A DNA stretch of 64,000 nt from Thermoproteota archaeon. Lineage in GTDB: Archaea; Thermoproteota; Methanomethylicia; Methanomethylicales; Methanomethylicaceae. The notes beneath the pieces are model-generated. The model was not told the origin of the DNA and searched no databases. It was given only the letters and a program-made list of their open reading frames with translations. Shown in pieces: positions 6,468 through 48,977 of this stretch (position 1 is its first letter; each line of letters begins with the position of its first letter). The position numbers and the translations under genes are program-made. The stretch covers positions 129,386 through 193,385 of the forward strand of contig JARXPE010000001.1 of the NCBI GenBank assembly GCA_029887795.1, read 5' to 3'.

Positions 6468-6503
6468 TAAGTTCTAATACGCCATTAAAAACCCTGCGGA
6501 CGT

Positions 6504-7823: not shown

Positions 7824-7824
7824 T

Positions 7825-8808
<984 letters not shown>

Positions 8809-22987: not shown

Positions 22988-24448
22988 TTATGAGGGAGTT
23001 TGAATAGGAGTGCTGTGAGCACGCTCCAAGATTGGTCTGTGAATAGAGTTCATTGTGCAGAATGGTATGATTTTTCCATCTGGGAATGCATAGTGGATCG
23101 TGCACCTATTCACACGATCCAGATCGAAGTTATAGGGATCCATGAAGTGCATGCACCCTATTAGGATGACCTTCCGCATGAACTGCCCCAAGGTATCATA
23201 ATCGCCTTGCATTAGTACGGACGAGACGAGGTTTCCCAAGAGTGACAGCTTAACGTGTCTCGTGGCGCCCAAGAGCCTCATTTTTGCCCTAAGCATAGAG
23301 CCTCTTGAGGCATCTTCGTAAACCTTGTTGAGCGAAGACATGAACTTTTCGACGTTGGCATAACGCGTTATTGGGACAATTTTGTCCCCCTCGGGAATGA
23401 TCATAGTCGCCATTCCGCAGTGTTGGTGGTTAGTGAACTCCTGGTACCGCCTCCCCTTGAGTGCGCCGACGGCTCTGGAGATGGGAAGAACGACTGGAAT
23501 GGGGTAAAAGTCGCTGACCTTGATCTCGCCGTTTGTCTGCTCCTCCGCTAGTTTTAGAACGTCAGGTATCGTTATCCGCATCTCTTTCAGCTTTTTCTTG
23601 TCTATCCTGCCTGCCATTGAAACCGGTTGGAAGTTTACTCCCCTGACCACATCGCTGTTCCTTGAGGCAAATCTTATTATAGCCCCTATCTGGTCATCGT
23701 TTATCCCTTTTACGACCGTTGGAACGAGAACGAGGCTGTCCAAGCCGACAGTCCTGCAATTTTCGATTACCTTTAGCTTTGTTTCGAAGAGATCTAAGCC
23801 TCTGGCTGCAATATATGGCCCAGGCTTCATGCCATCGAATTGTAGATATAGTGTGCTGAGCCCTGCATCCATGAGTCTCCTTAGGTAATCTATGTCCTTT
23901 GCAATCCTTATCCCGTTTGTATTAACTTCAATGTGGTGGAAGCCGAGTTCCTTCGCCATTGCAATGAGCTCGGGAAGATCCTCCCTAACGGTAGGCTCTC
24001 CGCCAGAGAACTGAATGGAGTTGGGAGCGACGGGTTGATTCTCTCTAAGGTTCTTTAGCATGGAGCGGACCTCGTCCTGGGTCGGCTCGTATAGGTAGCC
24101 GGCAGTTGCGGCGTTGGCGAAGCATATTGGACACTTGAGGTTGCATCTGTTGGTAACGTCAATTATAGACAGTACTGTATGGGATCTATGCGCAGGACAT
24201 ATTCCACAGTCGTATGGGCAACCCTTAACGGTCTGAGTCCTAGGGTTCTTGACGCCCTCGCCAATACACTCGTATCCTTCAACCTTCTTGAATAGCTCGT
24301 AATCGCTCCAGTAAACATCCTCAAATCTGCCGTGGGACGGGCATGTTTTCGCTATGTAAACCGCACCGTCCTCTTCGTATATATCAGCATCCAAGACCTG
24401 CATGCATTCAGGACAAAGACTCTTAGTTTTCTTTATGATCTGCATCAC
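22988..24448 (-). CDS. Radical SAM protein of the COG1964 family (Tes/GDGT-MAS tetraether-lipid synthase-like, or MJ0619-like) with an N-terminal zinc ribbon.
   Basis: N-terminal CPECxxxCPSHG, CPYDCGICPAH and radical SAM CNLKCPIC, plus a large C-terminal domain. 486 aa. Confidence 0.5.
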   Translation of the reverse strand: MMQIIKKTKSLCPECMQVLDADIYEEDGAVYIAKTCPSHGRFEDVYWSDYELFKKVEGYECIGEGVKNPRTQTVKGCPYDCGICPAHRSHTVLSIIDVTNRCNLKCPICFANAATAGYLYEPTQDEVRSMLKNLRENQPVAPNSIQFSGGEPTVREDLPELIAMAKELGFHHIEVNTNGIRIAKDIDYLRRLMDAGLSTLYLQFDGMKPGPYIAARGLDLFETKLKVIENCRTVGLDSLVLVPTVVKGINDDQIGAIIRFASRNSDVVRGVNFQPVSMAGRIDKKKLKEMRITIPDVLKLAEEQTNGEIKVSDFYPIPVVLPISRAVGALKGRRYQEFTNHQHCGMATMIIPEGDKIVPITRYANVEKFMSSLNKVYEDASRGSMLRAKMRLLGATRHVKLSLLGNLVSSVLMQGDYDTLGQFMRKVILIGCMHFMDPYNFDLDRVNRCTIHYAFPDGKIIPFCTMNSIHRPILERAHSTPIQTPS

Positions 24449-30065: not shown

Positions 30066-31445
30066 TTAGGTTAAGGGCTGGTGCTTCCCTCGGGGTATGA
30101 ACCTTCCCATGCCCTTCTTGCCCACGAACTCTCTGTTGTAGACAACAGGTTTGCCCCTCACGAAGACGTGAACAGGCATACCCTTCACTGTGAACCCCTC
30201 GTATATCGAATAATCAATCTTTGAGTGGAGGTTCTTCTGGTTCAGCTCCATCTCATAATTTGGATCGAATACGACTATGTCCGCGTCGCTTCCCACGTTT
30301 AGAGTCCCCTTCTTGGGATAGAGACCAAAGAGTTTTGCAGGGTTGTATGAAACAACCTCAACAAGTTTGTTTAATGAGATCCTGTTTTTGGCAACTCCCT
30401 CGCTGTAAAGTATCGGTATCATCGTCTCAGTGCCAGGGACGCCGTTCGGCACCTTGGTGAAGTTGTCTTTTCCTAGATCCTTCTGGGCGTCCGTAAATGT
30501 GCAATGATCGGTGGCTACGGTGCTTAGTGTGCCGTTTGCAAGTCCCTCCCAAAGAGCCTCGTTGTCTGCCTTGCTCCTCAGGGGCGGCGACATTATATAC
30601 CTCCTGCCCTTCGGGGAGAGGTATTTCTCGTCTGTGAGAACAAGGTAGTGGGGACAAGTCTCCCCGTATAGGTTCGGGTAGAGCTTTTTCATCCTTGAGA
30701 GTTCGGCTACACCCTCTTTTGTGGACATGTGTACTATGTAGAGGTTCCCTCCAGCCGCTGCAGCTAGCGCAAGACCCCTATAAACCGCTTCGCCCTCCAC
30801 GAAGTTTGGTCTGCTCTTGGCGTGGTACTCCGCGGACAATTTTCCAGAGGAGACATGCCGCTCTATTAGGAGCTCCAGAACGGAATTGTTCTCTGCATGG
30901 AGCTGGACCAAGAACCCGAGTTTCTTGCTCTCCTCCAGCATCCGGTATATTCTGCCGTCGTCGCTCATCAGCCCCTCTTTTCTGTATGGCATGAAGAGCT
31001 TGAAACTTGAGACTCCAGCTTCCAAGACCTTTGGGATCTCATTTACGAGGTCTTCAGTTAGGTTTGTCACAGCCACATGTATTCCATAGTCAATGACCAC
31101 TTTGGGATCCGCCTTACCCCTCCATAGCATGATAGTTTCCAAGAAGGTCTTATCCTTCGGCTGTATCGCAAAGTCCAAGATTGTGGTGACCCCACCAAAT
31201 GCTGCCGCTATTGTGCCGTACTCAAAGTCGTCGACCGTAGTGGTCCCCATGAACGGCATCTCCATATGTGTGTGGGCATCTATGCCCCCGGGCATGACGT
31301 ATTTGCCTGAGGCGTCCACGACCTCTTCTGCTTTTTCAGTAATATTTGATGCGATACTCACAATCTTGCCGTCCTTGACGCCTATGTCCGCTTTGAATGT
31401 GTCCTTCGGTGTGACTATAGTTCCGTTCTTTATTAATAAGTCCAT
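30066..31445 (-). CDS. Dihydropyrimidinase / D-hydantoinase (cyclic amidohydrolase).
   Basis: GGIDAHTHMEMPFMGTTTVDDFEYGTIAAAFGGVTTILDF signature. Start adjusted to MDLLIKNGTIV. Confidence 0.8.
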   Translation of the reverse strand: MDLLIKNGTIVTPKDTFKADIGVKDGKIVSIASNITEKAEEVVDASGKYVMPGGIDAHTHMEMPFMGTTTVDDFEYGTIAAAFGGVTTILDFAIQPKDKTFLETIMLWRGKADPKVVIDYGIHVAVTNLTEDLVNEIPKVLEAGVSSFKLFMPYRKEGLMSDDGRIYRMLEESKKLGFLVQLHAENNSVLELLIERHVSSGKLSAEYHAKSRPNFVEGEAVYRGLALAAAAGGNLYIVHMSTKEGVAELSRMKKLYPNLYGETCPHYLVLTDEKYLSPKGRRYIMSPPLRSKADNEALWEGLANGTLSTVATDHCTFTDAQKDLGKDNFTKVPNGVPGTETMIPILYSEGVAKNRISLNKLVEVVSYNPAKLFGLYPKKGTLNVGSDADIVVFDPNYEMELNQKNLHSKIDYSIYEGFTVKGMPVHVFVRGKPVVYNREFVGKKGMGRFIPRGKHQPLT

Positions 31446-31494
31446 TATAAAGCCTCCAATATTAATATAGAAAAAGAAGCGTTTAAACACTCAC

Positions 31495-32718
31495 CTATTT
31501 TGTGACCTTCTTCCATGTTATGCATCCAGGCACAGGACAGAGATGTGTGCATAGGGAGCAGGCGTCGCACTTCTCCTCGTCGACTTCAGCGGACTTGCCT
31601 TGCTCGAACTTGATTGCTTGGTAACCGCCATCGCGACATGCCACATAGCAAAGACCGCACTTTATGCATAGGTCCTTGTTGATGCTGGCCACGACAGTGT
31701 AGTCCTTGTTGAGTTTAGACCAAGCCGTAAGTCTGGGGAGAGTCTTACCAATGATCTCTTGGACGGATGAGAATCCTTTATCTGCTAGGTAATTGGTGAG
31801 TCCGTCGACAAAGTCAGAGATTATTCTGTAGCCCCTCCACATAACTGCGGTACAGACTTGGACGCTGCCTGCGCCCACGAGGAGGTACTCCACAGCGTCC
31901 TTCCAAGTGGTTATCCCGCCTATTCCTGAGACTGGGATATTTGTTGCCTGTGCGATTTGGGCGACGCATCTGAGACCTATGGGCTTGACGCCAGGTCCTG
32001 AGAGACCTCCAAAAGTGCTCATCCCGTCGACTGTGGGTATCGGCTCAAAGGTGTCAATGTTTATACCTATCAGGCCGAGCACGGTATTTATCGCAGATAT
32101 GGCATCGGCACCAGCCTCCTCAGCAGCCTTGGCGGTAAACGCGATGTCTGTGACGTTCGGGGTTAGCTTCACCATCACTGGGACCGAGGAGCCGCGCTTT
32201 GCCGCCTTTGTCAGCTTCTGGATTAGTTCTGTTCTTTGACCGATGAATGCGCCCATGCCCCGCTCAGGCATACCATGTGGGCAGCCAAAGTTCAGCTCTA
32301 GCATGTCGACCCCGGCTTCGCTCACCACTCTAGCTAGTTCTTCCCAGTCCTCCTCTTTGCACTCAGCCATGATACTGCCTATGAGTGCCTTTTCGGGGAA
32401 CTTCCTCTTGATCTCTTTAATCTCGTTAACCCATGTGCCAACAGGCCTCTTTGAGACTTCCTCAATGTTTTCGAATAGTATCATCTGCTTTGTCTCAAAG
32501 CCCATCACGCCAAATCTGTTCTTTAGGTCGTAGACAGGCGTCTTGTCCGGCTTTATTGTCTTGGTGACAGCTCCAGCCCAACCAGCCTCGAAAGCCCTCA
32601 TGATCATCTCACCAGTGCATGTCGGGGGCGCCGATGAAAGCAGGTACGGGCTCTCCAGCTCAAGGTTGCAGAATTTTACGGATATATCCGGTTTTGAAAC
32701 CATTTTTCTCACTTCCAT
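31495..32718 (-). CDS. preA: Dihydropyrimidine dehydrogenase subunit PreA (DHODH-like TIM barrel plus two [4Fe-4S] ferredoxin motifs).
   Basis: DHODH-like core with C-terminal [14 protein letters not shown] and [15 protein letters not shown] lies 4 nt after the preT stop. Confidence 0.8.
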
Positions 32719-32722
32719 AACT

Positions 32723-34084
32723 CTATTTCTTAGGACTCTTCCCTCCGGAGAGGAACTTGTCAATAGCAGCCGCAGCTTTCTTGCCCTCTGCCACTGCCTC
32801 GACCACAGTCTCACCGCCGTTTACGGCATCGCCTCCCGCAAATATGCCTTTTATGGAGGTGGAGAAGTTCTCGTCCACGACGATAAGCCCTTTTTCGGTC
32901 TTGACACCATAGGACTTCAGCAACTCTTCGTCTGGTTTCTGCCCGATTGCGACTATCACGGAATTTACATCGAGGCGGAACTCCGAGCCCTTTATGGGCT
33001 TTACCCCCCTCCTCCCAGATGAGTCGGGCTCGGTTAATTCCATCTTCACGCACTCAATTGCTTCCACGCTTTTTTCACCCAATATCCTGACGGGGGCGGT
33101 GAGCAACAGGAATTCGACACCCTCCTCCCTCGCCTGATTTCTGCCGTAAGGCACCGCAGGCATTTCTGCGAAAGACCTCCTATAGACTATGTATACCCTT
33201 TCTGCCCCGAGCCTCACAGAGGCGCAGGCTGCATCTATGGCGGTGTCCCCACCGCCGATCACTGCAACCCTCTTACCTTTGAGGTCGGGCGCCTTACCCT
33301 CCCCCATCAACCATTTTGCGACGGATTGTAGAAATTCCTGTGCCGGATAAACGCCATTGAGATCCTCGCCCGGTATACCAAGTTTTTGAGACTTTGTGGC
33401 ACCGATGCCCACGAAGACTGCATCATACTCCTTCAGGAGGGATTTGAGGTCAGTGATTTTCTTGTTGGTGACAAAGTTAATGCCATACTCCTTTATGAGG
33501 TCTATCTCAGACTCTGGGACGGACCAAGGTGCCTTCCAGGGAAGGATGCCGTAAAGTAGCAGACCACCGGGTTTGGGGTTTGCGTCAAAGACAGTGACGC
33601 CGTATCCCATGCGCGCCAGCTCGTATGCGGCCGATAATCCAGCCGGACCTGCGCCCACCACCGCAACCTTTTTGTTTTTGGAACGCGACTTCGGGAACTT
33701 GACGAGTCCTTTAAGCTTCTCTTTCTCGTAGGCGAACCTCTGAAGCATTGAGATTGCCACGGGCTCCTCGTTTAGGTTCCTCCTGACACATTTCGACTCG
33801 CAGAGTCGCTCAACCGGACAGACATAACCACATTCACCACCTAAGATGTTGCTTTCTCGTATCACCTTGGCTGCACCGTAGAAGTTTCCAGTCTTTATTC
33901 TGTAAATGAATTCAGGAATGTTGATTCCAGCTGGGCAGGCTGAGATGCATGGGGCGTCAAAGCACATGAGGCACCTTGAGGCTTCGTAGACCGCAAGTCT
34001 GTCGTCGAGATTTGAGACGTATGGAGCGAAGCTAGAAACCCTCTCATGCGGAGGAATGGTTTTAGTATGGACTCTACCTGACAT
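32723..34084 (-). CDS. preT: Dihydropyrimidine dehydrogenase subunit PreT (GltD-like, NAD(P)H/FAD binding, N-terminal Fe-S).
   Basis: CLMCFDAPCISACP plus two Rossmann motifs, VAVVGAGPAGLSAA and VAVIGGGDTAIDAA. Confidence 0.8.
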   Translation of the reverse strand: MSGRVHTKTIPPHERVSSFAPYVSNLDDRLAVYEASRCLMCFDAPCISACPAGINIPEFIYRIKTGNFYGAAKVIRESNILGGECGYVCPVERLCESKCVRRNLNEEPVAISMLQRFAYEKEKLKGLVKFPKSRSKNKKVAVVGAGPAGLSAAYELARMGYGVTVFDANPKPGGLLLYGILPWKAPWSVPESEIDLIKEYGINFVTNKKITDLKSLLKEYDAVFVGIGATKSQKLGIPGEDLNGVYPAQEFLQSVAKWLMGEGKAPDLKGKRVAVIGGGDTAIDAACASVRLGAERVYIVYRRSFAEMPAVPYGRNQAREEGVEFLLLTAPVRILGEKSVEAIECVKMELTEPDSSGRRGVKPIKGSEFRLDVNSVIVAIGQKPDEELLKSYGVKTEKGLIVVDENFSTSIKGIFAGGDAVNGGETVVEAVAEGKKAAAAIDKFLSGGKSPKK

Positions 34085-34150
34085 AGAATTCGCTCCTGAG
34101 AGGATTAATGGTTAATAAGGGGTTTTAATTAAGGCTTTCGTGATAGAATT

Positions 34151-34837
34151 ATGGATCTCTCAGAAGGAAGGGTTGTAAAAGGTATCGTATTCGATCTGGA
34201 CGGTACACTAGTTGACTCCGTCGACTCTATTTGGAGGTCCTCTGATTACGTGCTAAGGAGTAATGGATACCGCGGGTTAGACCGTGAGGACGTCGTGAAG
34301 GTGATGGGTAAGACCATCTTTGACTTATTTCTGAGCGTGGAGCCCAGATTGAGTCCACAGGAGCAGCATAAACTGTTCGAGGAATATAGGAGAACTTATA
34401 TGAACTTCATAGAGCACACCAAGCTGATCCCTAAGGTAAGGGAGATCCTTCTGTTTCTAAGATCGAGAAGATTGAAGATGGCGGTCGTCACCACGAAGAG
34501 TAGGGAAAACGCCGAGAAGATACTATCCTTTTTCGGAATAAGAAGCTTCTTTGATTTGGTTATAGGATTTGAGGACGTTAGAGAACACAAGCCCTCGGCA
34601 GAGCCCATAATGAGGGCAGCTGAAGGGCTGGGTCTTCAAGCCTCGGAGTTGGTTGTGGTCGGGGACACCGAGGTCGACATCAGGGCGGGGAGAGAGGCGG
34701 GAGCATTAACGGTTGCCGTTAAGACGGGCGTAACTCCTTTAGAGAAGATTATAGCTGAGAGTCCAAACTTTTTGATTGAGAGTGTGTCGGACCTGCCTGA
34801 GGTTTTAATGCGAAACGGTATAGCTACGGGTGAGTGA
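34151..34837 (+). CDS. HAD-superfamily hydrolase (phosphatase, PGP/PpaX-like).
   Basis: VKGIVFDLDGTLVDS motif I. VVVGDTEVD motif. Confidence 0.7.
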   Translation: MDLSEGRVVKGIVFDLDGTLVDSVDSIWRSSDYVLRSNGYRGLDREDVVKVMGKTIFDLFLSVEPRLSPQEQHKLFEEYRRTYMNFIEHTKLIPKVREILLFLRSRRLKMAVVTTKSRENAEKILSFFGIRSFFDLVIGFEDVREHKPSAEPIMRAAEGLGLQASELVVVGDTEVDIRAGREAGALTVAVKTGVTPLEKIIAESPNFLIESVSDLPEVLMRNGIATGE

Positions 34838-36119
34838 TGTTCTTTAGTATCTCATCGAACCGCCCTGCAGCAATGTCAATGTGTTCGCGGGTCAGGACCA
34901 ACGGAGGCTCTATTCTTATGACGTTGCCCTCTAACCCTCCGAGACCCACAAGGATCTTTTTCTTCCACGCTTCTTGCAGGAAGCTAACAGCTTCCTCTCT
35001 TGCGGGAACCTTTGTAGACCTGTCTTTCACCAGCTCGATCCCAAGAAAGAGCCCTATACCCCTGACATCTCCGATAATCTCGTATTTCTCCTGTAAGGAC
35101 TCCAGCCTGCGCTTAAAATATGAGCCGTTCTCCTTAACCTTTTCCATGAGACCGCCCGTTAGCTCCTCCAGGACAGCCTCCGCAGCAGCACATGCCAAGG
35201 CGTTTCCACCCAAGGTGGAGTAGTGCTCCCCAGGTCGAAGGGCTGAGTCGAGCTCCTCCTTGTAGATGGTTACACCGAGAGGGAGACCGTTGGCGATGGC
35301 TTTCGAGGTTGTCATCACATCCGGTATGATGCCATAGTGCTCAATACCCCAAAGTTTGCCTGTCCGACCGTTTCCAGATTGTACCTCATCCGCAATGAAG
35401 AGTATGGAATACTTGTCTAAAACCTGCTTGACTTCCTTGAAGTAATCAGAAGGAGGTATGATCATGCCACCGTTGGCCAGCATGGGTTCTGCCAATAGTG
35501 CTGAAATCGAGTCCCCCCCAACCTCGCATTTTATCACGTCCTCCATATACTTTACGCAGGCGAATCCACATTCGGGGCAGCTTCTATGCCCGAGCGGGCA
35601 CCTATAGCAATAGGGGTCGGGTGCAAACACCACTGGCGCGAATGGACCTAGTCCAACCTTCCAGCTTGACTGACCCAGAGCACTCATGGCGTAAAAAGTC
35701 CTGCCGTGAAACGACCTGTGTAGGGCGATTATGTAGGGTCTCTTCTTGACACGCTTCACGAGGGAGATCGCCGTCTCGTTGGCCTCTGAGCCGCTGTTCG
35801 TGAAGAAACTCTTGGTTAGGGCACCACCAGGAGAAAGTTCAGAGAGCCTTTTTGCAAGTCTTGCGGTGTAATCCAAGTAGTAGAGTGAGGATGTATGGAA
35901 GAGCTTGCGCATCTGCGCCTCAACTGCCCTGATTACACTCTGGTTCGACCAGCCCACATTGACTATGGATACGCCAGCGTATAGGTCGATGTAGGCATCC
36001 CCATCAATGGAGTAGACGATGTCATCAACAGCCCTATCTGGAACGAATGGATAGTAGTGCCTGTACATTCGCGAGAGGTAACGTTCGGAGAGGGCTATGA
36101 TATCTTTAGATGGGTTCAT
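34824..36119 (-). CDS. Class III PLP-dependent aminotransferase (omega-aminotransferase, candidate beta-alanine aminotransferase).
   Basis: Class III fold with PLP lysine region MTTSKAIANGLPLG. Carries an inserted Cys cluster CYRCPLGHRSCPECGFAC. Confidence 0.75.
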   Translation of the reverse strand: MNPSKDIIALSERYLSRMYRHYYPFVPDRAVDDIVYSIDGDAYIDLYAGVSIVNVGWSNQSVIRAVEAQMRKLFHTSSLYYLDYTARLAKRLSELSPGGALTKSFFTNSGSEANETAISLVKRVKKRPYIIALHRSFHGRTFYAMSALGQSSWKVGLGPFAPVVFAPDPYCYRCPLGHRSCPECGFACVKYMEDVIKCEVGGDSISALLAEPMLANGGMIIPPSDYFKEVKQVLDKYSILFIADEVQSGNGRTGKLWGIEHYGIIPDVMTTSKAIANGLPLGVTIYKEELDSALRPGEHYSTLGGNALACAAAEAVLEELTGGLMEKVKENGSYFKRRLESLQEKYEIIGDVRGIGLFLGIELVKDRSTKVPAREEAVSFLQEAWKKKILVGLGGLEGNVIRIEPPLVLTREHIDIAAGRFDEILKNITHP

Positions 36120-39351: not shown

Positions 39352-40284
39352 TCAGAGACGACACACTATGTCTTTCCTCAGATCAACACAGCCTATCAGC
39401 GCCAGGAGAACCCTTGCGTCCTCGGTGTTGACAACCCCATGAGCCCTCTCCCTCACTACGAGCTTTGGCTTGTATCCGATGCCGAGACCAACATTTTCTA
39501 TCATAAAAAGGTCGTTCGCACCGTCTCCAACCGCCACGCATGCCTCTAAGCCCACTCCAACCTTCGCGGCAATGGTTTTTATCGCCCTTAGTTTTGCTTC
39601 GGGACCAGTCATATATCCCTCAACCTCGCCCGTCAGGCGCCCATCTTTTACTATTAGCTTGTTGGAGAATACGTAATCGGCGCCTATCATCCTGCCGACA
39701 TGTTCGGCGGCAAAATCAAAGCTGCCAGTCACTATCCCTATCACGAAGCCAAGCTCTTTTAGTTTGGATATCAGCTCTTTGACCCCTGGGTTGATTTTTA
39801 TAGATGATTTTATCCGATCCAAAACCTCAACCGGAAGACCCTCCAATAGCCTGACTCTGGATCTCAGGGCCTCGAGGAAGTTCAACTTGCCTTCCATGGC
39901 GAGCTTCGTGATCTTTTTTACCTCTTCGCCAACACCAGCAGCCTTAGCCAGCTCCTCTATGACTTCCTGCTCTATCAGAGTCCCGTCTAGGTCGAATACT
40001 ATGATCTTCTTTCCACACCTGTAGCTCTGGCACGACTCTGCAGCCAGAGCCAACCCTACATCGTCACAGCTGTTCTTTAGGATGTTCAACAAGATGTCTC
40101 GTCTTATAACGGAGGTCTTGGTATCAACCACCATGATCATCAAAAACAGGTCGTTAAAGATTGTCGAAGCTCTCGTCTTTATAATGTTCGCGTGGAATCT
40201 GGCAAGGACCCCAGACACTGTGGCAACAATGCCTGGACGGTCTTTACCCAGTACTGTGATGACTAGTCTACCGTCCTCCTGCAT
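39352..40284 (-). CDS. serB: Phosphoserine phosphatase SerB with an N-terminal ACT domain.
   Basis: ACT (LVITVLGKDRPGIVATVSGVLA) plus HAD (IIVFDLDGTLI, GDGANDL). Confidence 0.75.
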   Translation of the reverse strand: MQEDGRLVITVLGKDRPGIVATVSGVLARFHANIIKTRASTIFNDLFLMIMVVDTKTSVIRRDILLNILKNSCDDVGLALAAESCQSYRCGKKIIVFDLDGTLIEQEVIEELAKAAGVGEEVKKITKLAMEGKLNFLEALRSRVRLLEGLPVEVLDRIKSSIKINPGVKELISKLKELGFVIGIVTGSFDFAAEHVGRMIGADYVFSNKLIVKDGRLTGEVEGYMTGPEAKLRAIKTIAAKVGVGLEACVAVGDGANDLFMIENVGLGIGYKPKLVVRERAHGVVNTEDARVLLALIGCVDLRKDIVCRL

Positions 40285-40534
40285 AATAGAAAGACACCTC
40301 TAGCCCAAGCTCGTGGCAGATGTATTCCAGCTTGTTACGAAAGGCGTTGAGATCCAGAGCCGCAGCGAGCTTGATGAGCATGGAGAGTATGAAAATTCCC
40401 TTCATTACAACTTGATCCATGTCCTCAATATTGCATCCGAACTCAGATATGACTGAAGAGATCTCGGCGATTAAGCCTGGGCGATCCGGCCCCACGGCAG
40501 TAATAACCATGTATCTATCAGCCATAGATGGCAC
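40268..40534 (-). CDS. Stand-alone ACT-domain protein.
   Basis: YMVITAVGPDRPGLIAEISSVISEFGCNI. Confidence 0.6.
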   Translation of the reverse strand: MPSMADRYMVITAVGPDRPGLIAEISSVISEFGCNIEDMDQVVMKGIFILSMLIKLAAALDLNAFRNKLEYICHELGLEVSFYYAGGR

Positions 40535-40537
40535 CGA

Positions 40538-41251
40538 GTGACCATCGAAGATTGTACAGAAAATCTAATTAAGTTTTCGTATGAATATTGGAAACATTGC
40601 GAGGGACGATGGGTGGGCAATGTTAAACTTGAGGCGCTCAAAGAGGCTCTACTTGAGCAGAATCAAAGAAAGGCGAAAGATCTCACAGAGGAATTTTTGC
40701 GGGAAGGGGTGGAGCCAAAGGAGATAATTGATGTGATATCTGAGGGCCTAAGATTAATTGGAGATCTGTTTGAGAAGGGCGAGTTCTTTCTGCCGGAGGT
40801 TATGAGGGCAGCGAATGCAGCCAAGGCATCTTTGGGCGTCGTGTTACCAATGATGGTTAAGGAGAATGTTGGTGATGGGCGAGGAGTGATTGCGATAGGC
40901 TCGCTGGGACCACATGACATCGGAAAGACCATAGTATCTTCGATGTTAATCGCAGATGGTTTCAAGGTGCTGGACATGGGCATCAACGTGACGCCGAGCA
41001 TCGTGGAGGATTTCCTAAGAAATAATAAAGTGGATATACTCGCCCTCTCAATTCTGCTAACATCCGACATAGATAAAGGTGCCAACATTATCGAGAGGGC
41101 AAGGAAGGTCTTAAGCGGTCTCAAGGTGATGGTGGGTGGAGCGGCTATGAGCCAAGATATTGCAAGAAAAATAAGGGCTGACGCGTACGGTAGGGACGCA
41201 AGCGAGGCTGTGAAGATAGCAAGAGAGCTTATTGGGGGTAAAGAGAAATGA
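40538..41251 (+). CDS. Corrinoid (B12-binding) methyltransferase-associated protein (MtaC/MttC/MetH-B12-domain-like). The real start is possibly GTG near 40604.
   Basis: B12-binding DxHxxG motif (GSLGPHDIGKTIV) and an N-terminal helical cap (EFLREGVEPKEIIDVISEGLRLIGDLFEKGEFFLPEVM). Confidence 0.75.
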   Translation: MTIEDCTENLIKFSYEYWKHCEGRWVGNVKLEALKEALLEQNQRKAKDLTEEFLREGVEPKEIIDVISEGLRLIGDLFEKGEFFLPEVMRAANAAKASLGVVLPMMVKENVGDGRGVIAIGSLGPHDIGKTIVSSMLIADGFKVLDMGINVTPSIVEDFLRNNKVDILALSILLTSDIDKGANIIERARKVLSGLKVMVGGAAMSQDIARKIRADAYGRDASEAVKIARELIGGKEK

Positions 41252-42138
41252 TGACAATGAGAACGACCGTTATCGGGAGTTATCCGGTGGTTGGTGAGGG
41301 TCTGGAGGCAATAAAGACTGCTGTGAACGACCAGCTGGAGGCAGGCATTGAAATAATAAGCGATGGGCAGACGAGAAAGGACATGGTGTGCTATTTCGCA
41401 GACCACATACCCGGGTTTAAGGTTGAAGACGAGAAAGCTAAGATTGTAGGAAAGGTGAGACCCCCAGAAGAAACTCCCGTAGTGGACGACTTGATATTTG
41501 CGAGAAAGTTGGCTGGTGAAAGGGCCGAGGTGAAGGCCATAATTACCGGTCCTGTCACAATGGTTTTCTTTTCCGAACTTGCCCCAGAGGCACCCTATGC
41601 CGGGTTCCGGGACGAGAGGCTTTACGAGGATGTAAGCGAAGCCCTAGCTGTGGAGGTGGAGATTATTCAGAAGGCGGGCTTTACGAAGATACAGATAGAC
41701 GAACCCAGTTTTTCAATCGGGGCGCCCATGAATATAGGGAGAAAGGCGCTCGAATCGATCGTGTCCGACTTGAAGGGAACAAAAGCGCTTCATGTTTGTG
41801 GAAACCTTAGGAGGGTCTTCGGAGAGATCGTGAAGATAGAGGGGTTGGACGTCCTAAGCTTTTCATTCAAGGATAACGTCAGCAACTTTGACAGCGTTGA
41901 GAAGAAGCTTCTGAAGGATTACTCAAAGAAGCTCGGCGTGGGTTGTGTAAGTACGATGAGCCCAGAGGTGGAGGACGTGGACTCTATTAAGAAGGTACTG
42001 ACAAGGGCGGTTGGGTTATATGGATCGGAAAATATCGAGTGGGTTCATCCCGATTGTGGGCTGAGATCCTTCAAAAGGGATGAGGCGTTCATGAAACTCA
42101 AGAACATGGTCACTGCGGTGAGGGAGCTGAGGGGATAA
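41248..42138 (+). CDS. Core-MetE-like protein (cobalamin-independent methionine synthase C-terminal-domain homolog, short archaeal form). Putative methylcorrinoid:homocysteine methyltransferase.
   Basis: 296 aa. MRTTVIGSYP start typical of the Meth_synt_2 domain. ATGA overlap with the corrinoid protein gene. Confidence 0.6.
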   Translation: MMTMRTTVIGSYPVVGEGLEAIKTAVNDQLEAGIEIISDGQTRKDMVCYFADHIPGFKVEDEKAKIVGKVRPPEETPVVDDLIFARKLAGERAEVKAIITGPVTMVFFSELAPEAPYAGFRDERLYEDVSEALAVEVEIIQKAGFTKIQIDEPSFSIGAPMNIGRKALESIVSDLKGTKALHVCGNLRRVFGEIVKIEGLDVLSFSFKDNVSNFDSVEKKLLKDYSKKLGVGCVSTMSPEVEDVDSIKKVLTRAVGLYGSENIEWVHPDCGLRSFKRDEAFMKLKNMVTAVRELRG

Positions 42139-43007
42139 TGGAAGTCCGCTTGGGTAACATAAAATTTGGCGATGTGCCGGTCATGATAGGCAGCCTGTTC
42201 TATAAATCGGACAGGAAGGTAATCGATCATAAAAGAGGCGATGTAAACAGACCAGCACTCCTTAGGGAGCTGAAGAGTGTCTCAAAACTCAAGGAAAGGA
42301 CGGGACTGTTTCATGCCCTAGACATAATAGCGGAAACTCCGGAGGCGATGGAAAGGTACATAGCCGCAGTTGCCGAGTTAACCGATGATCCCTTGCTCAT
42401 AGGGGGCCTCAATGAAGATACCAGAATCGCAGGTTACAGGAAGGCGTCCGAGTTGGGTCTGGTGGACAGGTGCGGTATAAATTCGGTGTCGCTTGCGACC
42501 AGCGAAAGGGAGCTAGAATGCATCAAAGATAGCGGGATTAAATTCGCAATAGTCCAGACATTGGACCCAGCTGCGGTTTACCCAGAAGAGAAGCTTCAAG
42601 TTTTGAAAGGAGGGCTCCTTGAAAGGTGCAGGAACGCCGGCATCACTGATGTTGCTATAGATGTCGGCATAATAGACTTCACGAGTGTCTGGCTGGCGGC
42701 AGAGTCGATTAAGGCGGTGAAGAATGAGCTTGGACTGCCTGCTGGATGTGCGCCCTCCAACGTTGCTTATCAGCCCCTGTTGAAGAAGAAGGTGACCAAG
42801 AGGGTCGCGAGATCGATGAATGTGGCACTCAACACGATGATACAAATCGCGGGGGCAGATTTCATACTGTATGGACCACTTAGGGCAGCAGGGTATATAT
42901 TCGAGGCAGCAGCCACAGTTGAGGGAATAAAGGCTTATGGAGAGAAGTTGAAGGGGAAGGCTTTTGAGAAGAGCCACCCACTTTATAAGTTCCTAGCTAA
43001 ACTCTGA
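42138..43007 (+). CDS. MtrH-like pterin-binding methyltransferase (methyl-H4MPT/THF:corrinoid methyltransferase).
   Basis: Resembles MtrH (FGDVPVMIGSLFYK ... LIGGLNEDTRIAGYRKASELGLVDRCGINSVSL). Confidence 0.7.
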   Translation: MEVRLGNIKFGDVPVMIGSLFYKSDRKVIDHKRGDVNRPALLRELKSVSKLKERTGLFHALDIIAETPEAMERYIAAVAELTDDPLLIGGLNEDTRIAGYRKASELGLVDRCGINSVSLATSERELECIKDSGIKFAIVQTLDPAAVYPEEKLQVLKGGLLERCRNAGITDVAIDVGIIDFTSVWLAAESIKAVKNELGLPAGCAPSNVAYQPLLKKKVTKRVARSMNVALNTMIQIAGADFILYGPLRAAGYIFEAAATVEGIKAYGEKLKGKAFEKSHPLYKFLAKL

Positions 43008-43024: not shown

Positions 43025-43255
43025 TTGGTTCTCGCGTGCGTCCTTATACACTGCAAGCCAGGGACTGCGACAGATGTCCTGAATAAGATAAAGGAGATAA
43101 AGGGTGTGAGAAGAGCGTTTGAGACCCTAGGAGGATATGATGTTGTCGTAGAATATGAGTTTCAGAGCCTTGAGAAGCTCGGAATAACAGTATATGAGAT
43201 AGCAAAGCTACCGGGCGTGGTCTCAACGGAGACCCTGATAGAGACACTATTGTGA
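43025..43255 (+). CDS. Stand-alone RAM (Lrp/AsnC C-terminal) domain protein.
   Basis: 76 aa. RAM-like hydrophobic/charged alternation with a conserved G. Confidence 0.5.
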   Translation: MVLACVLIHCKPGTATDVLNKIKEIKGVRRAFETLGGYDVVVEYEFQSLEKLGITVYEIAKLPGVVSTETLIETLL

Positions 43256-43256
43256 G

Positions 43257-43490
43257 GTGGTAGTCTTGGTTCAGGTCCTCGTGTTGATAAATGCCGAGAA
43301 GGTTTCAGTACTTGACGTTGTTGGAAAGCTGGAGAAGATGCCAGAGGTTTTGAGTGTTTTCCCTACCTTTGGTAGGTTTGATGTAGTGGCGTTCTGCAAC
43401 GTCGGCAATAGGGAGAGCGTTAGAGATTTGGTAAGAAAGATAGCTGCGCTCCAGGGAGTGTTGAAGACAGAGACCCTAGTGGAACTATGA
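43257..43490 (+). CDS. Stand-alone RAM (Lrp/AsnC C-terminal) domain protein, in tandem with the previous one.
   Basis: 77 aa. FGRFDVVAFCNV pattern. Confidence 0.5.
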   Translation: MVVLVQVLVLINAEKVSVLDVVGKLEKMPEVLSVFPTFGRFDVVAFCNVGNRESVRDLVRKIAALQGVLKTETLVEL

Positions 43491-45369: not shown

Positions 45370-46149
45370 ATGTCCTTCGACAAACTAAAGGTTGTTGGAT
45401 TCTCGGATTTGGAGATAAAGTTGTACGAATATTTGATTAAAAAAGGAAGCTGCAAGAAAGAGGATTTGCTTAGAGATTTAGGTCTGAATGAGAAGGACCT
45501 GAATGAGCACATCTCAAAGATGTCGTCTTTAGGCGCCATAGAAATTGTTGATGATTTGGTCTCTCCTTCGCCTCCGAGGTCATTTCTTCAAAAGTACTTG
45601 AGACTCAAGGAGGTGGAGGTAGATCTTCAGCTTGCCGAGCTTAAGAAGGTTGTCAATGAACTCCAGATGGTGTTGGAGCCTATATTCAGCGAGAGCAAAT
45701 ACGGAGTAAGGTTGGAAGACCTCTGGCAGACGATAGAGAGCCTATCGAGCATGGAAATGGAGACTATAAGGATGATATCTCGGGCAAATTCAGAGATATC
45801 CATATTGGCAGAACGTTTTAGCTACTACCCAAAGGTCAGAGAGGAGTTGCTCTCGGCTCTGGACAGGAAGGTTAGGGTCAGGGTGCTTCTGCTGGCGCTT
45901 GACAAGGAAAATGAAGGTAGGGTCGAGGACCTAAAGAGGAACAAGGTTGAGGTGAGGTTGGCAAGATGCGACTGGAGAAGTGTGAGGTTTACTCTGGTGG
46001 ACAGGAGAGAGGCGATATTCCTGATTTGGGCAAAGAAGAGCGGAGAGAACAGGGTATTCTACAGACCAGGCTATACGAAGAACCCGGGGATGGTGAGCGT
46101 CTTCTCGGACTCCTTCGAGTATCTATGGGACAAGGCACTGCCACTCTGA
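45370..46149 (+). CDS. TrmB-like wHTH transcriptional regulator.
   Basis: N-terminal LSDLEIKLYEYLIKKGSCKKEDLLRDLGLNEKDL. Confidence 0.5.
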   Translation: MSFDKLKVVGFSDLEIKLYEYLIKKGSCKKEDLLRDLGLNEKDLNEHISKMSSLGAIEIVDDLVSPSPPRSFLQKYLRLKEVEVDLQLAELKKVVNELQMVLEPIFSESKYGVRLEDLWQTIESLSSMEMETIRMISRANSEISILAERFSYYPKVREELLSALDRKVRVRVLLLALDKENEGRVEDLKRNKVEVRLARCDWRSVRFTLVDRREAIFLIWAKKSGENRVFYRPGYTKNPGMVSVFSDSFEYLWDKALPL

Positions 46150-47111
46150 AGAGAGTGAGAGTCTCGTTAGGGACTGCCATCGAGCTAGGTCTGATCCGTG
46201 GTCTCCAGAAGGATAAGCCCACTACGGCATACCTTTTCATGATCGGTAATGGTTGTAGGGGAAAGTGTAATTTTTGCCCTCAAGCGGCTGGAATGTCTGA
46301 GAATATATCAAGGGTGAGCTGGCCCGAACTCCCTTTGGAAGAGGTCCTGAAAGGGCTAAGGGACAAACATAGCTTTGAAAGGGTTTGTGTCCAGTGCGCC
46401 GAAGAAGATGGTTTAACAAGGCGACTAGTTTATTTTGTAAAAAGCCTGAGGCATGAGACAAGTCTCCCGATTTCGGTCTCCATGCCTTGTGTTTCTCGTG
46501 AAGAGCTGCTTGCTTTAAAGACAGTAGGGGTCGACGTTTTGACGATACCTCTGGACTGTGCTAATGAAGGTTTATTCCGAAAAGTAAAGGGAAGGGATTG
46601 GGGGGACCGCTGGTTGGCTTTGCATAAGGCCTTGGAGGTATTTGGTCCCAACAGAGTCGGAACGCATATAATAGCAGGGCTTGGGGAGACTGAAAGAGAC
46701 ATCGTGAATGTATTTTCAAAATGCAAACGGGAGGGGATCGTGCCCTCGCTATTCGCTTTTACGCCGATAAGGGGGACGCCCCTTTGGGGGAGACCGCAAC
46801 CAGATTTGGCATCCTACAGAAGGTTGCAGCTAGCTAGGGAGCTCATACTGAGCGGGAGGGCGACAGAGACGGATTTCACCTATGACAGCCTCGGGAGGAT
46901 TATCGGGTTCAATGTTAGCAGAAATGTAATAGAGGAGGTTATTAATGAGGGTAGCGCCTTTATGACCAGAGGATGCCTAGGCTGTAACAGACCGTACTTC
47001 AATGAGAAGGTCTCAGGACCCATCTACAACTACCCCCGCAAACTGGAAAGTAAGGAGATTGAAGAAGTCAGGAGGGAATTATTTGGAGGGATTGAGGGTC
47101 TTAAGGTTTGA
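46125..47111 (+). CDS. Radical SAM protein, candidate archaeal two-component lipoyl synthase subunit (LipS1/LipS2-type). Start adjusted to ATG 46125.
   Basis: CRGKCNFC Cx3Cx2C. Position immediately upstream of lplA-N/lplA-C. Confidence 0.5.
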   Translation: MGQGTATLKRVRVSLGTAIELGLIRGLQKDKPTTAYLFMIGNGCRGKCNFCPQAAGMSENISRVSWPELPLEEVLKGLRDKHSFERVCVQCAEEDGLTRRLVYFVKSLRHETSLPISVSMPCVSREELLALKTVGVDVLTIPLDCANEGLFRKVKGRDWGDRWLALHKALEVFGPNRVGTHIIAGLGETERDIVNVFSKCKREGIVPSLFAFTPIRGTPLWGRPQPDLASYRRLQLARELILSGRATETDFTYDSLGRIIGFNVSRNVIEEVINEGSAFMTRGCLGCNRPYFNEKVSGPIYNYPRKLESKEIEEVRRELFGGIEGLKV

Positions 47112-47112
47112 G

Positions 47113-47841
47113 GTGCAAGACCCGTTTTACAACATGGCGCTGGATGAGGCTATAGCGCGATCCGTTGGAGGGGGGGAAAGCCCGCCAACGCTAAGACTCT
47201 ATGGATGGGCGCAAAGGGCAGTCTCCTTGGGATACTTCCAAGAAATTCTGGAGGAGGTCGATTTGGGTTTTTGTAGAGAGAAGGGTATAGAGGTAGTTAG
47301 GAGGATAACAGGTGGAGGTGCCGTGCTACACACGGAAGGGGAGCTCACATATAGCTTCGCGGTGAAGGACGATGGTTCTTACGTGCCCGAGGACATTGAA
47401 GAAAGTTACAAAAGGATATGTTCACCAATAGTGGCGTGCATCAGGAGGCTTGGCGCGGAGGCAGTATTTAGACCGATAAACGACATTGAGGTAGCAGGCA
47501 AGAAGGTCTCAGGAAATGCCCAGACTAGGAGGTTCGGGGCAGTTCTCCAGCATGGAACCCTCCTTCTTTCCATAGATTATTCAATGTTGAGAGCGCTAAG
47601 ACCGAGGGTAGAAAAGTTGAGGGATAAGGGGGTTTCGGATGTCGGCGGGAGGGTCACAACGCTGAAGGAAATCCTCAAGTTTGAGCCAGATAGAGAAAGT
47701 GTGGCAGATATATTGGCGGAGGAGTTCGGAAAGTCGTTAGGGCTAGAGTTGAGATACGGAAGGATCACAGATAAGGAGAGGGAGCTTGCTAGGGATTTGG
47801 TCCGGAAGTACAGGTCAGAGGAATGGACCTTCAGGAGGTAA
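47113..47841 (+). CDS. lplA: Lipoate-protein ligase A, N-terminal catalytic domain (LplA-N). Start at GTG 47113 or ATG 47134.
   Basis: BPL/LplA catalytic motifs (RRITGGGAVLHTEG, KKVSGNAQ). Confidence 0.75.
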   Translation: MQDPFYNMALDEAIARSVGGGESPPTLRLYGWAQRAVSLGYFQEILEEVDLGFCREKGIEVVRRITGGGAVLHTEGELTYSFAVKDDGSYVPEDIEESYKRICSPIVACIRRLGAEAVFRPINDIEVAGKKVSGNAQTRRFGAVLQHGTLLLSIDYSMLRALRPRVEKLRDKGVSDVGGRVTTLKEILKFEPDRESVADILAEEFGKSLGLELRYGRITDKERELARDLVRKYRSEEWTFRR

Positions 47842-47851
47842 TATAGTGGAG

Positions 47852-48124
47852 ATGGTTGGGATCAAGAAGGTGAAGGGAGGCAAGCTCATCAAAGTTAGGG
47901 TCGAAGAGGAAGGTGGAATTATAAAGGAGGTGAAGATCTCCGGAGACTTCTTTGTCCATCCGGAAGACGCCATAGAGGATATCGAGAAGTCCTTGAAAGG
48001 GGTACATTTGAGCAAGGTGAGGGAGGCACTGCGTGATTTTGCCATGAGGAAGACTGTCAGGACAGTCGGCTTTGCTCTTGATGATATCGCAGATGTTATA
48101 GAGGGGCGAAGCGATGGTATTTAG
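47852..48124 (+). CDS. Lipoate-protein ligase C-terminal domain protein (LplA-C/LplB).
   Basis: About 90 aa (VRVEEEGGIIKEVKISGDFF). Adjacent to lplA-N as in archaeal split LplA. Confidence 0.55.
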   Translation: MVGIKKVKGGKLIKVRVEEEGGIIKEVKISGDFFVHPEDAIEDIEKSLKGVHLSKVREALRDFAMRKTVRTVGFALDDIADVIEGRSDGI

Positions 48125-48977
48125 TTACAGACCAAAGCCCTCCGTGTACAGCGTTTCGATTACTGGTCATCGATGTGAGCTATGTTGCAGACATTGCCAA
48201 GGGAAATACCTAACAGGTATGGAGGCGGCAGAAAATCCAGAGAGGCTCCTTGAAGCTTTTTTAAAGGCGAAGGCTAAGGGAGCAAAAAGCATCTTAATAA
48301 GCGGAGGCTTTGACAAGCGGGGCAGGTTGCCAGTTATGGACTTTCTGAGCACAATAAGGAAGGGAAAAAACAGGACAGGATTGGTTGTCGAGGTCCACTC
48401 GGGATTAATTAAGGAGGTGGATAAATTGATGGACTCGGGTGTAGACGCCTTACTTCTGGATGTCATAGGAGACCAAGAGACCATAGAGGAGTACCTCGGG
48501 GGCGGGTGGTCGGCTGGAGAGTATTTGGATGTCTTGCGGGAGGGTAAGAGGTTTGTCCCACTGGTTGCAGCCCACATATTGGTCGGGGTCAACGAAGGAA
48601 AAATAAAGGGAGAGTTCGAGGCGGTAGACATGGTAGCAGAGGCGAAGGCGGATGCCCTCTCTATATTGACGCCCATGGATGCAAAGTCGCCTGAGGTCGG
48701 GGAAATTGTGGAGGTGATGGACTACGCCAGGGAGAGGTTCAAGGGACACCTGACCTTGGGATGCATGAGAGCAAAGGGGAAAAACCGTCAGGAGATAGAA
48801 AGATTTGCTGTCGATTTGGGTTTCGACGGGATAGCTAACCCGCTAAAAAGGACTTTGACGTACGCGCAATCCGCCGGGGTTAAAGTCGTGGAGGTTGAAG
48901 GATGCTGCGTATTCACTCCAGATAGAATTCCCAAGAGCACCAGAGATTGTCTGGATGCGCATCTGGAGGGCAGATAA
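48114..48977 (+). CDS. Radical SAM protein, second candidate lipoyl synthase subunit (LipS-type).
   Basis: HRCELCCRHC cluster motif. 11-nt overlap with lplA-C. Confidence 0.5.
   Translation: MVFSYRPKPSVYSVSITGHRCELCCRHCQGKYLTGMEAAENPERLLEAFLKAKAKGAKSILISGGFDKRGRLPVMDFLSTIRKGKNRTGLVVEVHSGLIKEVDKLMDSGVDALLLDVIGDQETIEEYLGGGWSAGEYLDVLREGKRFVPLVAAHILVGVNEGKIKGEFEAVDMVAEAKADALSILTPMDAKSPEVGEIVEVMDYARERFKGHLTLGCMRAKGKNRQEIERFAVDLGFDGIANPLKRTLTYAQSAGVKVVEVEGCCVFTPDRIPKSTRDCLDAHLEGR

Follow-up and report, generated by a model that had tools for sequence, protein, structure and literature searches.

A three-gene corrinoid methyltransferase operon of Methanomethylicia that looks like a modular cobalamin-dependent methionine synthase

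Introduction

From which protein does a core methionine synthase, an enzyme reduced to the catalytic domain of MetE, receive its methyl group? The question is raised by three tightly coupled genes at 40613-43007 of a 64,000-nucleotide stretch of DNA (hereafter the window) from a Thermoproteota archaeon of the Methanomethylicaceae (assembly GCA_029887795.1, contig JARXPE010000001.1, positions 129,386 to 193,385 of the forward strand), which encode a corrinoid protein, a MetE-like protein and a protein of the MtrH family. In vitro, core MetE enzymes accept methylcorrinoids, and their donor has long been expected to be a protein; free methylcobalamin is used at an unphysiologically high Km, and the donor question has been open since the first purification. 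The protein donors that have been proposed, MtrA and CoFeSP, rest on co-occurrence (Price 2021, PMC7857596).

The Methanomethylicia (formerly Verstraetearchaeota) are H2-dependent methyl-reducing methanogens in which the Wood-Ljungdahl pathway, Fae and MtrA-G are reportedly absent. An isolate grows on methanol and monomethylamine only, and not on methanethiol or betaine. As set out below, we think it reasonably probable that the three genes form a three-component cobalamin-dependent methionine synthase, in function a split MetH, two modules of which come from families not homologous to those of MetH.

Results

Organisation and Conservation of the Operon

The three genes lie on the plus strand, with open reading frames ending at 41251, 42138 and 43007. 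The first (40613-41251) encodes a corrinoid (B12-binding) protein of 212 aa with cap and Rossmann domains, the second (41248-42138) a MesA-like putative core methionine synthase of 296 aa that comprises only the C-terminal catalytic domain of MetE, and the third (42138-43007) a divergent (beta/alpha)8 barrel of the MtrH family with 289 aa. The Pfam assignments (B12-binding_2 and B12-binding; Meth_synt_2; MtrH) bear out a preliminary description of the locus that had been made from the sequence alone, as do both gene junctions. Corrinoid and metE-like genes are joined by an ATGA overlap (41248-41251), and the metE-like gene runs into the mtrH-like gene through TAATG, in which the TAA stop and the ATG start share base 42138. 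GAGG-type sites accompany the junctions. These are real, translationally coupled genes.

The start of the corrinoid gene had been placed at 40538, which had to be corrected in favour of GTG 40613. In most orthologues an in-frame stop is found 1-16 codons 5' of the codon equivalent to 40613, and most have a start codon at this position with a GAGG-type site 6-10 nt before it, so that a start at 40538 was rejected. The window itself carries a GAGGG ribosome-binding site 8 nt 5' of GTG 40613. The equivalent start is also used by most annotations of metagenome-assembled genomes (MAGs), and 40613 is almost certainly the true start. The gene is therefore preceded by an AT-rich divergent intergenic region of 87 bp (40526-40612, read from the sequence), presumed to hold the promoters for both arms of the locus.

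The arrangement was followed with an aligned set of MetE-like homologues as the query, scanned against a single genome for each species, which gave 79 loci; presence of the gene block was judged only where the contig reaches, and absences coincide with contig ends. The block, in which serB and a gene for an ACT-domain protein are divergent from the corrinoid, metE-like and mtrH-like genes and two genes for RAM-domain proteins, is intact in all 28 Methanomethylicia species loci, among them those of the two cultured strains with complete genomes, Methanosuratincola petrocarbonis LWZ-6 and M. verstraetei LCB70. SerB was found next to the trio in 25 of the 28 loci, as was the ACT protein, and each of the RAM proteins in 23. 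Protein identities across the loci range from 49 to 92%, with minima of 49% for the corrinoid protein, 61% for the MetE-like and 57% for the MtrH-like protein. Such recurrence of the arrangement is far beyond chance. In a database of 5.8 billion proteins the three proteins form one sharply delimited clade each, all limited to Methanomethylicia and of similar size (about 66, 65 and 77 clusters). Relatives outside share at most about 51% identity with the MetE-like, 38% with the MtrH-like and 42% with the corrinoid protein.

Genes of methyl-compound catabolism did not accompany the operon. No substrate:corrinoid methyltransferase of the MtaB, MtmB or MttB type was found in or near the cluster in the 28 loci, the window contains no mcr, mta, mtm or mtt genes, and methylamine or methanol genes, whose presence would by the preliminary description have spoken against its reading, were seen neither in the window nor in related loci.

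The MetE-like Protein

The protein matches Meth_synt_2 at 1.4e-38 (133 bits) and reaches 23 bits with Meth_synt_1, below the cutoff of 27, its 296 aa corresponding to the catalytic domain only. An adjacent Meth_synt_1 partner, as in a split MetE, was not found in the locus tables. The N-terminus reads MMTMRTTVIGSYP, as had been pointed out before. The equivalog model NF002119 ('methionine synthase') is passed with 265 bits (cutoff 258), NF003317 is not (163, cutoff 406), and identity to the MesA-family members of Methanocella, Methanoculleus and Methanoregula is 38-42%. Membership of the UroD/MtaA clade, the placement that the preliminary description had named as refuting its reading, was not observed: the MtaA model NF040654 gave 19.5 bits (cutoff 400) and PRK06252 26.6 bits (cutoff 244), and there was no URO-D Pfam match.

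An alignment of the window protein with T. maritima MetE and 78 homologues was used to locate the active-site residues. Ser11 (GSYP), Gln41 (DGQ) and Asp151 (IDEP) are kept in all aligned groups. In MetE and MesA the corresponding Ser, Gln and Asp bind the carboxyl and amino groups of homocysteine, Gln being the MesA/MesC variant (Price 2021, PMC7857596). The zinc ligands His182 and Cys184 (His-x-Cys) and Cys270 are also kept, the last Cys standing in HPDCG and not DPDCG. The intact Ser/Gln/Asp set, His-x-Cys and the C-terminal Cys argue for homocysteine rather than coenzyme M as the methyl acceptor. The fourth zinc ligand is a Glu in E. coli MetE (Glu665) and in methanogen MesA (within DHEF). 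The window protein has Ser206 instead, and every Methanomethylicia sequence Ser or Ala; the Glu is also absent from the Baldr-, Jord- and Freyarchaeia and from the Dehalococcoidia group.

The loss of this Glu (residues 199-216; 41842-41895) tracks the presence of neighbouring corrinoid or pterin-pathway genes. Such neighbours are found in Methanomethylicia, Baldr- and Jord-/Freyarchaeia, all without the Glu; where the Glu is kept, in the proteins of Odin, Asgardarchaeum and Mnemosynella and in euryarchaeal MesA, they are missing. The correlation is weak, since only about nine lineages contribute to it.

In a neighbour-joining tree (100 bootstraps) rooted with the C-terminal domain of T. maritima MetE, the Methanomethylicia sequences formed a clade with 100% support, which was joined by the Asgard sequences (73%) and then by those of Dehalococcoidia (88%). 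This group stands apart from euryarchaeal MesA and Mnemosynella. From its scores and this position we would call the MetE-like protein MesA-like, at the boundary of the family, and it is predicted to be a methylcorrinoid:homocysteine methyltransferase. MesA-like proteins of about 285-305 aa with 40-51% identity to the window protein proved widespread in bacteria and non-methanogenic archaea, with loci in Dehalococcoidia and Chloroflexia (L048-L082), Nitrospinae (L069) and Asgard classes (L033-L045). This contrasts with the confinement of MesA to methanogens described by Price 2021 (PMC7857596). The MesB characterised from Dehalococcoidia is a different protein from the MesA-like ones of this group.

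The Corrinoid Protein

Both Pfam domains were found in the corrinoid protein (B12-binding_2, 1e-16; B12-binding, 1.8e-16), which aligns to MetH residues 641-861 at 1.4e-29. Its best solved relatives are MttC (7xcn), 1y80, MtmC (3ezx) and the cobalamin domain of MetH. In the alignments to 7xcn, 1y80 and 3ezx the SxL motif (SIL in LALSILLTS) and the GG motif (VMVGGAA) are present. A DxHxxG motif had been reported for this protein, which is not what its sequence contains: the B12 motif is IGSLGPHDIGK, with LGPHDIGK giving GxHxxG, in which the His that serves as lower ligand to cobalt is kept and Asp has become Gly. All 26 locus orthologues have this form, as do 76 of the 77 clade members in the database, while 42 of 43 outgroup corrinoid proteins have Asp at the position. 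The score with TIGR02370 was 130 (cutoff 215), and cobamide binding is predicted from these sequence features.

The MtrH-like Protein

The third protein matches Pfam MtrH at 2e-44 (152 bits, cutoff 22.8). With the curated NCBIfam models it scored 224 for NF002142 (cutoff 287), 160 for the MtgA model NF047990 (cutoff 550) and 134 for the mtrH model TIGR01114 (cutoff 271.4). The closest solved structure by sequence is that of MtgA (1.6e-39), followed by true MtrH-type chains at 4e-33 and 3e-25. MtgA is a soluble methylcorrinoid:tetrahydrofolate methyltransferase (structures 6SJ8, 6SK4). An AlphaFold model (predicted local distance difference test, pLDDT, 94.8; predicted template modelling score, pTM, 0.91) matched the folds of MtgA and M. 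mazei MtrH with template modelling (TM) scores of 0.92-0.93. All structural neighbours of the model bind pterins, these being MtgA, MtrH, 8z9u, O-demethylase MT2, MeTr, DHPS and the folate domain of MetH; PF00809-type barrels appear as distant fold matches only (TM ~0.6).

In MtgA the pterin is contacted by Ser32, Asp75, Asp102, Asn129, Asp194 and Ser226/Asn227, and the exchange D102A abolishes activity (Badmann and Groll). Six of the seven contacts are kept in the MtrH-like protein as S19, D62, N115, D175, S207 and N208, in all 23 Methanomethylicia sequences. In the same 23 sequences Asp102 of MtgA is replaced by Gly89 and His38 by Asp25. Gly89 lies in strand 86-90 of the model at the same place as Asp102 in MtgA and is followed by an invariant GG[LM]NE. 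MtgA, both solved MtrH-type proteins, the outgroup proteins P0186 and P0189 and Baldrarchaeota all have Asp102. The MtrH-like barrel is predicted, from its fold and its conserved contacts, to be a methyl-pterin:corrinoid methyltransferase.

Related Arrangements in Other Lineages

Four loci of a Baldrarchaeota type (L037, 5065-7832; L039, L040, L041) have genes for a methylenetetrahydrofolate reductase (MetF), a MetE-like protein and an MtrH homologue in a row, with overlapping genes. The MtrH homologue passes NF002142 (288, cutoff 287) and keeps both canonical residues, Asp102 and His38. A profile search detected no corrinoid gene within 6 kb on either side of these loci. This operon looks like another modular methionine synthase, the carrier of which would be encoded elsewhere, and the order metF-metE-mtrH links the MetE/MtrH pair directly to methyl-pterin production.

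In five Jord-/Freyarchaeia loci (L055, 5980-9021; L056, L060, L070, L074) the MetE-like gene is convergent with genes for an MttB-family methyltransferase of the non-pyrrolysine type and a corrinoid protein with the canonical DIHDLGK. This suggests that methionine could obtain its methyl group from a quaternary-amine-type donor in these archaea. Corrinoid or methyl-pterin neighbours were absent from the loci of Odin, Asgardarchaeum, Promethearchaeota, Hodarchaeota, Mnemosynella, Dehalococcoidia and classical methanogens. Taken together, the Methanomethylicia, Baldr- and Jord-/Freyarchaeia loci place this enzyme clade repeatedly beside corrinoid or methyl-pterin genes, with methyl sources specific to the lineage.

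Flanking Genes and the Remainder of the Window

The divergent arm of the block lies on the minus strand. Its distal gene (39352-40284) encodes the phosphoserine phosphatase SerB with an N-terminal ACT domain (231 bits with TIGR00338 serB, cutoff 144; ACT_6 and HAD domains present). The start of serB is overlapped by the gene for a stand-alone ACT-domain protein of 85 aa (40268-40525; Pfam ACT_6, 1.3e-19), whose start is the same as in MAG annotations; the protein probably binds an amino acid. Downstream of the trio, on the plus strand, are two stand-alone RAM-domain proteins of 76 aa (RAM1, 43025-43255; AsnC_trans_reg, 5e-11) and 74 aa (RAM2, 43266-43490; AsnC_trans_reg, 3.1e-10). They are paralogues with 37% identity. 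RAM1 resembles the solved stand-alone RAM proteins 2zbc, 2cvi and 2e1a of 75-83 aa and is predicted to be a sensor of a small molecule, namely an amino acid. Pfam and NCBIfam agree with what had been described for this neighbourhood, SerB and ACT divergent upstream and two RAM-domain proteins downstream. Both RAM paralogues are conserved with the operon as tightly as the enzymes are, and both also give weak NapD-like matches. An Rfam scan near the operon found neither a riboswitch nor another RNA element. In Methanosuratincola the RAM genes are followed by an insert of roughly 2.3 kb with unrelated genes.

The window sequence is identical to contigs of Candidatus Methanomethylicaceae MAGs, e.g. 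GCA_038851635.1. The remainder of the 64 kb is of a housekeeping nature, with Topo VI, thermosome, lipoylation genes, RadA and phosphoenolpyruvate synthase among others. The lipoylation cluster (about 46153-48977, +) comprises LipS2, the LplA large subunit, a Lip_prot_lig_C protein and LipS1 and implies a lipoylated protein such as GcvH. The open reading frame of LipS2 (45966-47111, +; 381 aa) overlaps the end of a TrmB-like gene; the true start is placed downstream because the NCBIfam match begins at residue 64 and the forms in MAGs have 290-328 aa. As a tie of the operon to glycine cleavage the genes LipS2, LplA and LipS1 were dismissed, for they are not stably linked to it (LplA in 7 and LipS2 in 2 of the 28 loci).

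On the minus strand at 4908-8805, a form III RuBisCO gene lies between AMP-phosphorylase-like and IF-2B-family (ribose-1,5-bisphosphate isomerase-like) genes; this is the archaeal AMP or pentose-bisphosphate module, here in a Thermoproteota methanogen. At 30066-36119 a dihydropyrimidinase- or dihydroorotase-like amidohydrolase, a DHO_dh protein with ferredoxin domains, a Pyr_redox flavoprotein, a HAD hydrolase and a class-III aminotransferase form a cluster that resembles a set for reductive pyrimidine degradation. A radical-SAM gene at 22988-24448 (-) was considered as a methanopterin-biosynthesis enzyme in view of the Pfam match Zn_ribbon_HMPTM and was rejected, as NCBIfam identifies it as tetraether lipid synthase Tes (NF045702, 671 bits, cutoff 450).

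Discussion

If the operon is a three-component methionine synthase, as we favour, its reaction may be pictured as follows. The MtrH-like barrel would move the methyl group from an N5-methyl-pterin, similar to methyl-tetrahydromethanopterin (methyl-H4MPT) or to methyl-tetrahydrofolate (methyl-H4folate), to the Co(I) corrinoid of the carrier. The methyl-Co(III) carrier would then dock on the MesA-like core MetE, whose zinc site (His182, Cys184, Cys270) would activate homocysteine as its thiolate, which accepts the methyl group to give methionine. Reductive activation would be supplied in trans, by genes outside the cluster. Gene order, domain families, conserved residues, synteny throughout the clade and the analogous operons of other lineages are observed; which way the methyl group flows, the nature of the pterin, the docking of the proteins and activation in trans are what we infer in this scheme. 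As the host is reported to have neither MtrA nor the Wood-Ljungdahl pathway's corrinoid protein, a dedicated carrier would supply the donor for the core MetE, and the co-conserved SerB, ACT and RAM genes assign the unit to the biosynthesis of amino acids and its control.

The nearest functional analogue is the split MetH of Phaeobacter inhibens and Ruegeria pomeroyi (MtgC/MtgD/MtgE; Price 2018; PMC12478193), which likewise consists of three polypeptides with a shuttling B12 carrier. The carrier domain PF02310 is common to both systems. However, the pterin module is Pterin_bind PF00809 in the split MetH and MtrH PF02007 in the trio, the homocysteine module is S-methyl_trans PF02574 in the former and Meth_synt_2 PF01717 in the latter, and the trio differs further in its anaerobic archaeal host, its organisation in one operon and its GxHxxG carrier. 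With the B12 module alone homologous, the trio would work like a split MetH without being a member of that family; the resemblance is convergent and not by descent. The earlier idea that the trio reproduces the modules of MetH as separate polypeptides consequently holds for the separation of the three roles, and as an analogy only.

MesA (MTH775 type; Schroeder and Thauer 1999; Price 2021, PMC7857596) shares with the MetE-like protein the size of about 300 aa, the restriction to the catalytic domain, Ser/Gln/Asp, His-x-Cys, the C-terminal Cys and NF002119, and is likewise expected to use a methylcorrinoid donor. The MetE-like protein forms a separate clade, however, has lost the Glu ligand and has HPDCG in place of DPDCG. 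The donor predicted for MesA is MtrA, reportedly lacking in Methanomethylicia, whereas the trio has a carrier and a loader within the operon. MesB and MesC with CoFeSP (Price 2021) are also core MetE enzymes paired with a corrinoid protein by neighbourhood or co-occurrence; they belong to a different MetE subfamily (under 30% identity, by the definition of that paper), and the carrier is CoFeSP, from a pathway reportedly lacking in the host of the trio. The glycine-betaine system MtgABC of Desulfitobacterium hafniense similarly combines a soluble MtrH-family barrel with a small corrinoid protein. There, MtgA unloads the methyl group onto tetrahydrofolate in a catabolic sense, and the third partner is an MttB-family betaine methyltransferase, in contrast to the homocysteine methyltransferase predicted for the trio. 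Family, fold and methyl exchange between a pterin (H4MPT) and a corrinoid are shared with the MtrH subunit of Mtr and with the soluble enzyme of methoxydotrophic Methermicoccus (8z9u; PMC8630106). The trio differs from Mtr in that no other mtr genes accompany it and its carrier is of the MtmC/MttC/MetH type, not MtrA. Judged by sequence, the trio appears to lie outside, or just at the border of, the defining features of MesA, of MtrH/MtgA and of canonical cognate corrinoid proteins. In the literature covered, to which two 2024 cultivation papers did not belong, we found no description of a core MetE from archaea that is accompanied by a carrier of its own and a loader of the MtrH type. Nor did we find anything there on methionine synthesis in Methanomethylicia, and the supplementary tables of Price 2021 are without these taxa.

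Several observations weigh against a three-component methionine synthase. In all three proteins a canonical residue has undergone a change that is fixed in the clade: gone are the Asp of the His-Asp-Ser triad from the corrinoid protein, the Glu zinc ligand from the MetE-like protein and, as the most serious of these changes, the equivalent of Asp102 from the MtrH-like protein. The same Glu loss in MesC of MSBL-1 has been taken as a reason to doubt function (Price 2021, PMC7857596). The MtrH-like protein misses every curated NCBIfam cutoff, and its closest characterised relatives, MtgA and the Methermicoccus enzyme, run from corrinoid to pterin. Near the operon, the Methanomethylicia loci showed neither metF nor mer and, as the methyl branch is reportedly lacking as well, the origin of the methyl-pterin is unaccounted for. 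A RamA-type activase is absent from the cluster. Finally, strain LWZ-6 requires yeast extract, so that methionine prototrophy is unproven. Within the window there is neither a Meth_synt_1 gene nor a second methionine synthase, the rest of the genome lying outside this search. The central idea of the preliminary interpretation, three separate polypeptides that take on the work of the pterin, B12 and homocysteine modules of MetH, stood up to each test applied, and metF-metE-mtrH of Baldrarchaeota lends it independent support. As a whole the interpretation is partly supported, given that the likeness to MetH modules is one of analogy, that the DxHxxG motif was wrong, that the donor is weakened and that the search for methionine synthases covered the window. 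As to the donor, methyl-H4folate or methyl-H4MPT had been proposed; the lost Asp of the pterin pocket and the reported lack of the Wood-Ljungdahl methyl branch speak against it.

Since the nearest characterised relatives of the MtrH-like protein work from corrinoid to pterin, a hub in which methyl flow is partly reversed is a real rival, although we regard it as unlikely. In such a hub the carrier would be methylated by another methyltransferase, e.g. the methanol or monomethylamine enzymes, the MetE-like protein would make methionine, and the MtrH-like protein would unload methyl groups onto a pterin for one-carbon biosynthesis, as MtgA does. MtgC and MtgD of R. pomeroyi indeed serve both methionine synthesis and demethylation, in both directions (PMC12478193), and a lineage without the methyl branch but with plentiful methyl substrates, and with no metF or mer near the operon, would fit. 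However, enzymes of the MtaB, MtmB or MttB type normally stand beside their own carrier, and the surroundings of the cluster lack them in all 28 loci. Moreover, to be of use, the methyl-pterin from such a route would still depend on an enzyme of the MetF or Mer type, and the Baldrarchaeota operon points to a flow from pterin to methionine. The flow might also bypass the pterin altogether if the MtrH-like protein uses another methyl donor or is a non-catalytic partner, the carrier being loaded otherwise and the MetE-like protein still making methionine. This we consider improbable. The fixed replacements of Asp102, essential in MtgA, and of His38, the long branch and low outside identity (at most 38%) of a clade that fails the NCBIfam cutoffs, and the lack of a pterin-methyl source near the operon are in its favour. 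Yet six of the seven pterin contacts are invariant, including the Ser-Asn pair at N5, all structural neighbours bind pterin, and both the strong purifying selection and the close linkage within the operon speak for a catalytic function. In addition, GG[LM]NE after strand 3 together with the new Asp25 could supply a relocated carboxylate.

The existing literature offers a catabolic interpretation, stated for Methanomethylicia and relatives in several genome papers, according to which mtrH, corrinoid and methyltransferase genes channel an unknown methylated compound into methanogenesis. Three-component systems with MtrH are catabolic elsewhere, as in MtgABC, the Methermicoccus methoxy system and the mtrH-mttB-mttC clusters of Culexarchaeia. 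Nevertheless this is the least probable of the explanations weighed here. The supposed methyltransferase is a MetE catalytic domain that passes the NCBIfam cutoff for methionine synthase, and it is its intact homocysteine-binding residues, the lack of a coenzyme M methyltransferase and of mcr genes nearby, and the narrow range of substrates of the isolate that disfavour catabolism. SerB, ACT- and RAM-domain neighbours are typical of amino-acid metabolism. A bolder view, for which we see a rather low likelihood, goes further: the trio would be independently assembled, with co-evolved non-canonical sites (GxHxxG, a three-ligand zinc site and a pterin pocket without Asp), and the MtrH-like protein would have left the ordinary chemistry of methyl-H4MPT or methyl-H4folate. 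If so, methyl-reducing methanogens without the Wood-Ljungdahl methyl branch would obtain the methyl group of methionine from an unrecognised donor or from their growth substrate, a new anabolic entry point for methyl groups.

With a three-component methionine synthase as the favoured reading, the operon would name the B12-protein partner long sought for archaeal core methionine synthases. Since a MesA-like enzyme, its carrier and a candidate loader are found in one operon, in a class with cultures, the donor question becomes directly testable, with three small soluble proteins of a thermophile. Clusters of mtrH, corrinoid and methyltransferase genes in Methanomethylicia have been cited as evidence for methane formation from unknown methyl compounds; if the operon is a methionine synthase, these inferences on the substrate range of Methanomethylicia should go. 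B12-dependent methionine synthesis would then have been put together on at least two occasions from pterin and homocysteine modules that are unrelated, and in Baldr-, Jord- and Freyarchaeia the related enzymes seem to be connected to different methyl sources (MetF, MttB).

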